Positions 1-12,418 of a stretch of DNA of 64,000 nt are shown in pieces. The translations under genes and the position numbers were made by a program. The first letter of the stretch is position 1. Each line of letters begins with the position of its first letter. Origin of the DNA: a virus. The stretch spans positions 12,407-76,406 of IMG/VR virus record IMGVR_UViG_3300044811_000054. The stretch is one strand, 5' to 3'. Under the pieces are notes generated by a model. It saw only the letters and a list, made by a program, of their open reading frames with translations, was not told the DNA's origin and searched no databases.

Positions 1-909
1 GACGCCGAGCAGGGCACTCGAAGTCATCTGCTCGTCCAGCCAGCGCAGAAACTCCTGCGTCGGCGGCAGTGACCCGGTGATACCCAGGATCTTCATGGAG
101 AAGCCCGGCGGTGTTGCGGCGCCTGCGGCGATGCCAGCCCGGGACGCCGACGCCAGCTGCTGCGCCTCGGACATCTGGGTGGGTGTCGGGTTCGTGCCGG
201 GCAGGGCCTCCATGACCGGGACTCCGGCGCTCCACCGCACGTTGGCGATGGCGTAGGCCCGGCGCACCTCCTCCTTGATCAGCCAGGAAGCGTACGAGGA
301 ACGCAGCAGCGAATGACCAGCCCAGTTGGAGCCCTCACGTTCCCGCACGTAGAACGCCATGTTCTTTGCCAGGATCTGCGGTGACTTGTCGTTCCAGGCG
401 CCGTCCTGGGTGACCCCGACCAGCGTGCCCGTCTTGCCGTCGACGTGCAGGTGGTTGATGGTCCACTGCGGGCGTTCCCACAGCCCGGACAACTGGGCTG
501 TCTTGCCGTCGGAGGTGTCCGCCTGGAGTTCGAACGCCGAGAAGCCGAACGGCACTGCCCGCAGCGCTGCGGCCAGATGGTCGCCCCAGGACACGCCACG
601 CAGCCGGGTCGGCCCCGGCTTGTCCTTGCCCTGTACGGCGAGACCCATACCGTCGGCGACGAGTTTGACCACCGACGGTCGGCAGCCGGACGGGTCTAAC
701 TGCCATTGGGCGCGGCGCAGGTTCAACGTCCACGATTGGATGACCGCGGCCAGCTTCGGGTCGCGGCGCATGCGGGCGTAGACCGGGATCGACAGCGGGA
801 ACGTCAGGTCCGGGACGTGCTCGAGGATGTCCAGGTACAGCGACGCGTACTGGCTACTGCCCAGCATGTGCGGGTCGACGTAGCCCTTGGTGGTCGTGGG
901 GGCAGTCAC
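1..909 (-). CDS. Phage portal protein (DUF935/Mu gp29-like), 3' end outside window
   Basis: Manually translated open frame from GTG 909 (MTAPTTTKGYVDPH...YARMRRDPKLAAVIQS...PFGFSAFE...GSNWAGHSLLRSSYASWLIK); directly downstream of TerL. Confidence 0.8.
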   Translation of the reverse strand, partial: MTAPTTTKGYVDPHMLGSSQYASLYLDILEHVPDLTFPLSIPVYARMRRDPKLAAVIQSWTLNLRRAQWQLDPSGCRPSVVKLVADGMGLAVQGKDKPGPTRLRGVSWGDHLAAALRAVPFGFSAFELQADTSDGKTAQLSGLWERPQWTINHLHVDGKTGTLVGVTQDGAWNDKSPQILAKNMAFYVREREGSNWAGHSLLRSSYASWLIKEEVRRAYAIANVRWSAGVPVMEALPGTNPTPTQMSEAQQLASASRAGIAAGAATPPGFSMKILGITGSLPPTQEFLRWLDEQMTSSALLGV

Positions 910-928
910 GGCTGACCCCCGCTCACGG

Positions 929-2241
929 CTACATGGCGGCGCTGGCCAAGTCCAGATCGGTGGAGCCGGAGCCGTACGGCACCTGGACACCCATCGGGCG
1001 GCGCCACGTGCCCTCGGTGGTCTTGATGCCGTAGCGAACCGCGTCCAAACCGTGGTCGTCGACCTTGATCGGGGCGTCCACGCCGCGCATAGCCTTCTTC
1101 TCGTCCCACGAGTAGCCGGGGAACTCGTCGATCAGGTGCTTGCAGGACCGGTGAACCTTGAGCTTCCCGGCGCCGAGAACGCTGGACACCAGACGGATAC
1201 CGTCGGCCACCGCGTTGTCGGCAGGCGTCGGTGTCATCCGGTCGCGCCACAACTGCTCGATGAACGAGGCCGCCGACGGGTCGACGACGATCGCCTCCGG
1301 CGTGACCCCAGCGACGTGGTGTCCCGGCTGCCGGTACTCGGCCAGCCACCGCTTCAGCTCCGCGGAGTACTCGGCGTCCGTCATCGACCGGCGGGTGTCG
1401 CGCGCGCTGTGCCGCCACTCCGACGCGACGTAGATCGTCTGCGAGGCGTCGATTCCGAGCAGAAGGGCGTGGAGCGGGTTAGACGTTCCATAATCTACCG
1501 ACGCGCAGATCCACCGCCAGATCGGCGGGAGCAGGTCGATGACGTGGCGGTCCGGGTCCCACATGTCGTAGACGGCGCCCTCGGCCGAAACCCACAGGCC
1601 AAGGACCATGCGCTTGAACCACATGCCGGTGAACTCGGCCTTGATGGCGGCCAGGTACTCGGGAGCGAGTGACGGGTTGTCGTCTAGCGTGAAGTGGAAG
1701 TGCGCCAGGTCAAGCTCGCCGGCACGCTGAATGAACTCCTTGCGAAGCCAGTGCGCAGGCCCATCGGGGTTGGTTGTCAAAAGAAGGCGTGCACCGGGAA
1801 CGGAGAGTCGCGCCAGGAACTGCGTGAAGAACGCTTTCGGGACAAGAGTGGCCTCATCGATCATCCCTAGACAGGCGGTCAAGCCTCGAAGGCGACCCTC
1901 GCTGCGGGCATCGTTGGCGCCGATGAGGTGCACCGTGCGACCGAGGATGGTCGCAACGTTCGATCCCCGCGTGTGCTGCACCGTGTCGGCAACGGCGCCG
2001 AACAGGGCCAAGTCCTGAAGTGGATCGAGCAGGTTACGTTCGATCGTCTGAAGCGTCCTGCCCGCAACGATAATGAGCCCCGAACGGGGCGCCTCCCTGA
2101 GGGCCAGAACAAAGGCAATCAGGGAGGCGATTGTTTTCCCGAGCGGACAGCTCCACTCCAAAGCGAAATTCGGCTATGCCGCGACTGGACGATCGAAGCG
2201 ATCTGCTTCGCTGAGAGCGCGAGCGAGGGGGTCGGGTTCAT
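929..2241 (-). CDS. terL: Terminase large subunit (PBSX-like), joined by a -1 frame transition at 2140-2134; about 437 aa; start codon uncertain
   Basis: 0-frame from ATG 2241 gives LSAKQIASI...WSGAVRSGK; -1 frame continues GKTIAS..., Walker B MIDEAT, motif TTNP, nuclease motifs VDYG, VDPSA, DDHGLDAVRY. Confidence 0.9.
2090..2154 (-). promoter_or_regulatory. Putative programmed -1 frameshift cassette
   Basis: mRNA sense: GGAG (2154-2151), 10 nt, G GGA AAA (2140-2134) in the correct phase, 4 nt, then perfect 11-bp stem CGCCUCCCUGA/UCAGGGAGGCG (2129-2119 with 2100-2090). Confidence 0.6.
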
Positions 2242-2914
2242 ACGGCCATGCATCCGACTTGCTGCGGTTGCAGGTGCTGCACGATGGCCGCAAATTCGCA
2301 GGCCAGTTCGAGCCGCCTCCAGCGAGCGGCTTGACGTGATCCGTGTCGGTTGCCGGGGCTCCGCACATCCAACACCGCCCGCCGTAGTAGTCCCACCGGG
2401 CCGCGCCCTGGACGGCGGTCGACTTTCCCGGCGCGTTCTTGATCCGGGCGTAACGAGCAGCGTTCTGGGCGCGGATCTGGTGCCGCAAGCGCTCAGGGTT
2501 GTTCTTCCGCCACGCACGCTTGATCTCGTTCGCGCGCTCCTTGTCTATGGAACGGTAGTAGCGGCGCTTGTTGGCTTTGATCCGGTCTCGCACGCCTGGC
2601 TGGTCGATCCACGCTTTCCGCGCGACCGCGCGGGCAACCCTGCTCTCGGTCCGCCGCCGAATCGTGCAGGCTATGCAAACACCGTCGAAGCCAGTCTTTG
2701 TTGCCCGATTGCGGTAGAAGCCGTCGGGCTCCTTGTAGGTCTCGCAGCGGGAGCACCAGAGCTGACCATCTTCGCGACGGTCGTCCCGGCACGGGTGGTC
2801 AGGCTGAACATCTCCGTGGCGCCGCCGTCGCATGTCGTGCATGCCGCAAAGCTCGCGGCTCTTGACCTTGACGGGTCGCGTGCATTCCTGCACACAGCAG
2901 GTATCGTCGGGCAT
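2174..2914 (-). CDS. HNH homing endonuclease with N-terminal zinc fingers
   Basis: C-terminal CWMCG...DHVKPLAGGGSNWPANLRPSCSTCNRSK; lies between terS and terL and overlaps the terL 5' end. Confidence 0.9.
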   Translation of the reverse strand: MPDDTCCVQECTRPVKVKSRELCGMHDMRRRRHGDVQPDHPCRDDRREDGQLWCSRCETYKEPDGFYRNRATKTGFDGVCIACTIRRRTESRVARAVARKAWIDQPGVRDRIKANKRRYYRSIDKERANEIKRAWRKNNPERLRHQIRAQNAARYARIKNAPGKSTAVQGAARWDYYGGRCWMCGAPATDTDHVKPLAGGGSNWPANLRPSCSTCNRSKSDAWPYEPDPLARALSEADRFDRPVAA

Positions 2915-2990
2915 GTCGGACCCCTCGCATGGGTTCGGCCATAGCCCGGGGCGAGGTGCAACTCGTCGCCGGGCCCTTACATTTCTATTC
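2914..2990 (+). ncRNA. Putative two-hairpin antisense RNA over the HNH ribosome-binding site
   Basis: -10-like TATCGT at 2902-2907; hairpin over the RBS; second hairpin GCCCGG-GGCGAG-GTGCAA-CTCGTC-CCGGGC; T-rich tail. Confidence 0.35.
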
Positions 2991-3516
2991 TATCGGAATC
3001 GGCGCTTTTATCCGATGCGCCACCGAGTGATTCGTAGGCAGTCTGCAGGCCGTTTGCGACTGCATCGAGTAGAGACGAAGCCGCGTCGCTGCTCGCTGAG
3101 TCATGTCGCTCGAGTACCAAGTGCTTGTCGATCGCGGTCGCCGCCGACACCATCAGATTCTTCAAGTCGCCGGTCGGTGGCTTCTTGAGCAGATGTTCCT
3201 CGTAGGTGTTGTCCTTGCCGCCGAAGTTGAATACCAAGTGCGGCTCGTCCATCTGATCAAGAAGTTCGTTGGTCTTGTCGAGGAACCGGCGAGCGGTCGA
3301 CACGCGAAGGGCTTTGCTGTCGATGGCTGCCGCGCGCGTAGCGTTTTCGGTCTGTAGCCGACTAAACGCGTCGACGACGCCTGCCCGCTTGGCGATGTTT
3401 CCGACAGTCTGCGGGTTGACCCCATGATCACGAGCTATCTGCGCGCGACCCTTGGTCCCGGCTTTGATGTCGGCGAGGATCGCCGCGCGCTTGTCGTCGG
3501 GGAGGCGGGGCGGCAC
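2977..3516 (-). CDS. terS: Terminase small subunit (N-terminal HTH)
   Basis: HTH GRAQIARDHGVNPQTVGNIAK; position upstream of TerL. Confidence 0.75.
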   Translation of the reverse strand: MPPRLPDDKRAAILADIKAGTKGRAQIARDHGVNPQTVGNIAKRAGVVDAFSRLQTENATRAAAIDSKALRVSTARRFLDKTNELLDQMDEPHLVFNFGGKDNTYEEHLLKKPPTGDLKNLMVSAATAIDKHLVLERHDSASSDAASSLLDAVANGLQTAYESLGGASDKSADSDRIEM

Positions 3517-12380: not shown

Positions 12381-12418
12381 TCGGCATCTCCTCTCCTAGC
12401 TGGGTCAATGCTCAATCC

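Follow-up and report, generated by a model that had tools for sequence, protein, structure and literature searches.

In tailed phages, -1 programmed ribosomal frameshifting is textbook knowledge for the tail-assembly chaperones, where two useful proteins are made in a fixed ratio. The slippery site of the lambda chaperone genes G/GT is G GGA AAG, and no downstream structure is needed. In E. coli dnaX, the heptamer A AAA AAG lies between two other elements, a Shine-Dalgarno (SD)-like sequence 10 nt upstream and, at a distance of about 6 nt downstream, a hairpin. Here, we analyzed the gene for the terminase large subunit (TerL) in a 64,000-nt stretch of a virus record in IMG/VR (IMGVR_UViG_3300044811_000054, positions 12,407 to 76,406), hereafter called the window. 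The Walker A motif of this terL is split across two reading frames and is complete only with a -1 shift. Comparison with related genes strongly supports obligatory -1 programmed frameshifting as the source of full-length TerL in this soil actinophage. This would put a known mechanism in an unusual place that is critical for function.

Among published cases, the closest is TerL of Streptomyces phage Hau3 and prophage StrepC.1, for which translational bypassing triggered by UUA was proposed (PMC10732093; reviewed in PMC5009743). The 10-nt inserts in the Hau3 terL begin with UUA, a rare codon, and are thought to be hopped over (PMC10732093). Both cases concern an actinophage terL with a disrupted genomic frame that needs recoding, and a link to host translation was proposed for Hau3. 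However, the Hau3 protein belongs to another TerL family with its sites outside Walker A, whereas the terL of the window lacks a single base at a canonical heptamer and involves no UUA. The nearest concept is the translational correction of 'savior' indels (PMC5009743), in which frameshifting likewise compensates an indel in an essential coding sequence and no second functional product is created. Those indels are mostly single-genome cases, whereas the terL indel is fixed clade-wide together with a conserved RNA structure. Full-text literature searches yielded no description of -1 frameshifting for any terminase gene.

The Walker A motif of terL is split across two reading frames

All coordinates refer to the window, and terL is read on its minus strand. 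The 0-frame segment (2134-2241) starts at ATG 2241 and extends over 36 codons, the last being AAA 2136-2134. It specifies the conserved N-terminus (LS.KQ...RISLWSGAVRSGK), which covers the first six Walker A residues; the N-termini of intact relatives are homologous to it in the same frame. Without a shift, the open reading frame (ORF) runs on through the tail CAA TCG CCT CCC TGA (2119-2133) 3' of the heptamer and ends at TGA 2121-2119, giving the 40-aa peptide that had been predicted for unshifted reading, with the C-terminal end ...LWSGAVRSGKQSPP. The body of the enzyme lies in the -1 frame (929-2134, 401 codons from ACA 2134-2132 to the stop). It starts at the T of GKT, reads TIASLIAF... 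and holds the rest of the ATPase domain as well as the RNase-H-like nuclease domain; the ORF in which it lies (2161-929) reads ...CPLGKTIASL... in the -1 frame. The body matched the Pfam profile Terminase_6N (PF03237) with 32.8 bits at a cut-off of 22, terL also gave weaker matches to Terminase_3C and Terminase_6C, and a relative, P0013, matched the solved TerL structure 5OE8 (2e-66). The ATPase and nuclease domains of the PBSX/Terminase_6N type of TerL were thus present, whereas the Walker A signature GxxxxGK[T/S] was not found in one frame.

The two segments join at the slippery heptamer G GGA AAA (2134-2140), which follows the X XXY YYZ pattern in phase with the 0 frame and is the only in-phase heptamer of this kind in the stretch of about 17 codons where both frames are open. 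Only a -1 slip at this heptamer yields the P-loop GAVRSGKT exactly as in intact homologues. The sequence statements of the original prediction were all reproduced, on the minus strand. The intact relatives used for comparison were the Streptomyces phages Austintatious, Vondra and Alderaan, prophages of Paractinoplanes and Actinoplanes, and about 100 metagenomic or genomic loci. They read ...W.GAVRSGKTIASL... in a single frame with the codons TCN GGN AAR ACN, and the alignment showed that the window is exactly 1 base shorter inside TCN GGN, immediately 5' of the Lys codon. At the heptamer position, the closest intact relative (L059) has the non-slippery sequence TCC GGG AAG, followed by ACC. 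The Lys codon AAA, which accounts for 12% of Lys codons in the head and packaging genes of the phage, is used in the shifted genomes, and this rare codon is a requirement for slippage at the heptamer.

The site resembles lambda G/GT in its nearly identical heptamer (G GGA AAR), in the -1 direction and in its phage late-operon context, and, as for lambda and other tail chaperones, it is recognised by a two-frame layout conserved across relatives. It differs in that the shift lies 36 codons into an enzyme gene, inside the catalytic P-loop, and that the 40-aa product has no known role. GGGAAAA was absent from 13.4 kb of head and tail genes, so that no tail-chaperone slippery site of the phage itself was available for comparison.

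The same break was found in related genes, a check that the original prediction had named. The terL locus L005, located in IMG/VR record G403 from a different metagenome of the Joint Genome Institute (JGI), shares 82% nt identity with the window and lacks the same base. Its two-frame layout mirrors that of the window down to the position of the 0-frame stop, and the heptamer is identical, as is the 16-nt block GTCCGCTCGGGAAAAC. Two ENA-derived proteins, P0009 (88%) and P0125, start with MERRRPLGKT and ...VERGGPLGKT, respectively. These N-termini are the -1-frame readings of WSGAVRSGK and WSGAARSGK, indicating that both share the shift, and from their ...PLGKT ends the heptamer would be present in both. 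A 151-nt contig from an independent soil study of 2025 spans 2059-2209 with 4 substitutions and no gap. Furthermore, Logan's separate assembly of the probable source run was identical to the window at a depth of about 11. The two-frame layout with its slippery site is thus kept in diverged relatives under purifying selection (L005, P0009, P0125 and the 151-nt contig).

A search of 5.8 billion clustered proteins showed that all eight protein clusters with at least 85% identity are 381-411 aa long and lack the N-terminus. Matches at 72% identity or below are 408-444 aa long and were intact wherever the DNA was checked, and the approximately 110 more distant relatives with DNA were all intact. 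A tree built from the ATPase half united the four sequences proven to be shifted and four short ones in one clade (support 98/96), beside which the intact L059 fell with an unresolved placement. No member of the shifted clade was detected in 185,000 species genomes or in 401 Micromonosporaceae genomes, a JGI metagenome scan and an IMG/VR pattern scan revealed no further DNA of this clade, and a search with the 40-aa 0-frame peptide matched no predicted small proteins. Two recombinant terminases, P0013 and P0014, combine a nuclease half that is 87-89% identical to the window with an intact ATPase half of the Actinoplanes type (57%), a mosaic that points to recombination inside terL between shifted and unshifted lineages.

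Selection on both frames was determined by comparing the window with L005. The 401 body codons differ by 161 synonymous and 56 nonsynonymous changes (dS, the synonymous rate, 0.92; omega, the nonsynonymous to synonymous rate ratio dN/dS, 0.07), and omega was 0.026 in the first 50 codons 3' of the site (27 synonymous versus 4 nonsynonymous). When the body was read in the wrong frames, omega rose to 2.2 and 5.7. For the 36 upstream codons, omega was 0.17, with a lower dS because of the overlap with an HNH endonuclease gene (2174-2914, minus strand; Pfam HNH, 8.5e-8). This gene covers the first 22 terL codons (2241-2174) in the frame of the terL body, and its stop is consequently the last stop ahead of GKT in that frame. 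Between this stop and the heptamer, 13 codons are free of overlap. In the 0 frame they read RISLWSGAVRSGK in the window and RIALWSGAVRSGK in L005, with 1 replacement and 5 synonymous changes, one of them an AGT/TCT serine switch, whereas the -1 frame reads PNFALEWSCPLGK and PHCPVVWGSPLGK, with 7 of 13 residues different. Conservation of the 0 frame before the heptamer and of the -1 frame after it indicates that selection switches frame at the heptamer. No further stops or indels were found in the 437 codons of terL in the window or L005.

The record that contains the window (G000) is 68% complete, and G403 is a complete genome of 112,563 bp with a 123-nt terminal repeat (CheckV 100%). Neither a second TerL nor a PF03354-type terminase was found in the complete G403 genome. 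The head and packaging genes shared by the two records have no other frame breaks. The records can be aligned over a head and packaging module of about 14 kb (66-78% nt identity) and one stretch of about 0.9 kb, and the remainder is unrelated at the DNA level. As they share little else, the shifted allele has been retained despite extensive divergence and mosaicism. As no tRNA genes were found in G000 or G403, the shift is not explained by a shifty or suppressor tRNA encoded by the phage.

RNA elements around the slippery site

A hairpin is predicted downstream of the heptamer (2090-2129, minus strand), with the 5' arm at 2129-2119, the loop at 2118-2101 and the 3' arm at 2100-2090. The 0-frame TGA and the rare AGG codon for Arg (2098-2096) fall within the stem, an 11-bp perfect inverted repeat; AGR codons account for 7.7% of Arg codons in the head and packaging genes. 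The spacer is CAAT (2133-2130), and the hairpin starts 4-5 nt 3' of the heptamer. Its fold in the window had a minimum free energy of -41.4 kcal/mol and a z score of -3.74, and none of 200 shuffled sequences was as stable; the z score was -4.03 for L005 and -5.91 for L059. Among these three sequences, compensatory pairs were observed as C:G/U:A, through the synonymous changes TCC/TCT and AGG/AGA, and as C:G/G:C. In the stem alignment of the three, 91.7% of cells were paired, versus 35-48% when the 3' partners were slid. The 11-bp stem with the stop and AGG that had been predicted is present and conserved, and its compensatory changes extend to the relatives; it is stronger in the intact L059 and so did not evolve for the shift.

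In L059, the hairpin occupies the same position in an unshifted terL (L059:1195-1234, JACCDR010602747.1), is 16 bp long and is built with the rare codon AGA. Another rare Arg codon lies at 2057-2059 on the minus strand (body codon 26), where AGG in the window corresponds to AGA in L005 and CGT in L059.

The two additional elements that had been proposed are both present in the window and fared less well in relatives. A second hairpin, GCCCC/GGGGC (2077-2090, minus strand), is weaker in L005, and L059 lacks it or has a different structure. The SD-like GGAG (2151-2154, minus strand), 10 nt upstream of the heptamer, corresponds to GGGG in L005 and overlaps obligatory codons; since the Gly-Ala codons of the P-loop impose GGNG, the SD-like element is probably incidental. 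The likeness to dnaX lies in the heptamer followed by a stable hairpin, and the GGAG of the window is also 10 nt upstream. The differences are that this SD-like element is unconserved, that the terL hairpin is also present in an intact-frame relative, and that the dnaX shift produces the shorter gamma from an intact gene, whereas the terL shift would be the only route to the full enzyme. The proposed dnaX-like signal of SD element, heptamer and stem-loop was accordingly not supported as a three-part unit.

Proposed obligatory frameshifting and its alternatives

That TerL is produced through a -1 ribosomal frameshift within Walker A, as originally predicted, is strongly supported by a shared break under selection, a frame switch at the heptamer, the descent of the shifted genes in one clade and the presence of a sole TerL in G403. 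In the proposed mechanism, ribosomes would initiate at ATG 2241, read 36 codons and then undergo a tandem -1 slip on G GGA AAA (2140-2134), with the Gly-tRNA moving from GGA to GGG and the Lys-tRNA from AAA to AAA, probably during a stall against the stable hairpin 4-5 nt downstream. After the slip, reading would resume at ACA ATC... and generate GAVRSGKTIASL, the Walker A motif of the family, and non-slipping ribosomes would terminate four codons on, releasing the 40-aa peptide. We infer both the slip itself and its efficiency from these comparisons. The break most likely originated as a 1-nt deletion in the TCN GGN codons of a hairpin-bearing ancestor. With AAA as the Lys codon, such a deletion would have become tolerable, and later it was presumably fixed throughout the clade; the pre-existing hairpin may have made it survivable. 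That recoding also sets the TerL:TerS ratio, as had been proposed, is speculative and was not supported.

Several observations weigh against this mechanism. An obligatory shift in an essential enzyme that has no other copy, and for which no useful second product is known, would be atypical of programmed frameshifting, and the contigs would also be compatible with a small share of genomes in which the frame is intact. Full DNA is available for two shifted members, the rest being protein N-termini or one low-depth 151-nt contig. The hairpin may act as a frameshift stimulator, but the strongest hairpin (16 bp, z -5.9) is carried by the intact-frame L059, showing that the structure is not specific to shifted genes. 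The covariation statistic is weak on three sequences (106 of 500 shuffles reached the observed score), and the spacer of 4-5 nt is at the short end for known bacterial signals, canonical cassettes having their stimulatory structure 5-9 nt downstream. The SD-like element is unconserved, so that the conserved SD-like sequence 10-14 nt upstream expected for dnaX/IS3-type signals was not found. Since L059 is intact and yet has the stronger hairpin, the hairpin either is older than the shift or serves another function, and it is not diagnostic. An intact relative with the same hairpin had been named beforehand as an observation against the prediction; L059 fits that wording, and recoding is not thereby refuted.

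A sequencing or assembly error, in which the true genome would be one G or A longer in the G3A4 run and the gene intact, has a practically negligible chance of explaining the break. The short homopolymer context is prone to indel errors, and the window comes from a metagenome assembly with contigs as evidence; however, the same gap recurs in an independent metagenome at 82% nt identity, in two ENA-derived proteins and in a contig of a different study, a second assembler gave the identical sequence at a depth of about 11, and the shared module has no other frame breaks, with all eight clusters of the clade lacking the N-terminus. If the deletion is real and inherited, terL could be a pseudogene, carried by an element that is decaying or satellite-like. 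The loss of 1 nt from an essential motif would be a textbook sign of this, and the record of the window is 68% complete, but the dN/dS values of 0.03-0.07 downstream and 0.17 upstream at a dS of about 0.9 are far from the value near 1 that a pseudogene would approach. Together with 437 codons free of further stops or indels in either genome, an intact head module and a complete, terminally repeated G403 that has no other TerL, these values make a shared inactivating mutation very improbable.

The remaining two explanations accept a functional gene. RNA polymerase slippage on GGGAAAA, adding a G or A, or low-frequency slippage at the DNA level (phase variation), by which part of the genomes would regain the frame, would lead to an identical protein, a short homopolymer pair is present at the site, and the comparative data do not separate these mechanisms from ribosomal slippage. 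Productive transcriptional slippage and phase variation, however, take runs of about 7 or more identical bases, and G3 and A4 are far shorter. The X XXY YYZ phase and a structure at the right distance matter for ribosomes only, and shifted members use AAA for Lys where the intact L059 has AAG, which leaves polymerase or DNA slippage an unlikely source of the protein. Alternatively, TerL could be split or truncated, with the body initiated at an internal TTG (2161) or GTG and the 40-aa peptide acting in trans or dispensable. Gene callers indeed annotate the gene from an internal start, and a -1-frame start-type codon precedes GKT by 8-9 codons in the window, L005, P0009 and P0125. Such a product would nevertheless be devoid of the first Gly of GxxxxGKT and of the beta-strand that precedes the P-loop. 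The invariant LS.KQ motif, 23 residues upstream, would also be missing; it is a Q-motif-like adenine contact, as in T4 gp17. Furthermore, the -1-frame residues before GKT are unconserved (EWSCPL, VWGSPL, ERRRPL and ERGGPL), no SD sequence precedes the internal starts, and the upstream segment is conserved in the 0 frame only, ending exactly at the P-loop lysine. Internal initiation is on these grounds highly unlikely.

Neighbouring genes and implications for the packaging motor

The gene order on the minus strand, read leftwards, is a helix-turn-helix (HTH) gene, the HNH endonuclease gene, terL and the start of the portal gene. The HTH protein (2977-3516, minus strand) occupies the small-terminase position, and its assignment as TerS is based on position only; gene 1 of Vondra is a comparable HTH gene upstream of the Vondra terminase. 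The portal gene lies directly downstream of terL, with its 5' part at 1-990 (minus strand), and extends past the window (PHROG portal, 7.8e-57; L122:11786-13396). Upstream of the window, a 713-aa ORF adjoining the portal gene (L122:9638-11779, minus strand) matched an ADP-ribosyltransferase toxin PHROG at its C-terminus, and an ORF of 738 aa (L122:5539-7755, minus strand) encodes a head maturation protease, the middle of which also matched RNA-ligase/2H-type PHROGs. The terS-HNH-terL layout is common to the window, L005 and the intact L059 and is absent from Actinoplanes-type relatives. The possibility that the HNH protein is a homing endonuclease driving a resistant indel allele is neither supported nor excluded; as the same HNH gene lies upstream of the intact L059 terL, its presence does not track the shift.

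A further and rather doubtful possibility is that the frameshift serves as a regulatory gate, in which the slip rate on the rare AAA before an older hairpin sets, and perhaps times, the supply of the packaging motor. Packaging would then be tied to the translational state of the host, as proposed for UUA bypassing in Hau3, and TerL might be kept below the level detected by TerL-sensing defences. A gate of this kind would make TerL the first enzyme whose catalytic P-loop is put together across a recoding site throughout a phage clade.

If obligatory -1 frameshifting does produce TerL, irrespective of such a gate, a stretch of about 110 nt would be a compact frameshift cassette that can be tested in high-GC actinobacteria. 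Gene callers and phage annotation pipelines would wrongly give such terminases a truncated N-terminus, which is how 8/8 clusters are called. The clade would also provide a natural example of a pre-existing RNA hairpin that made a frameshift mutation survivable, and recoding would be a fixed feature of these phages and the only way to an essential motor protein.
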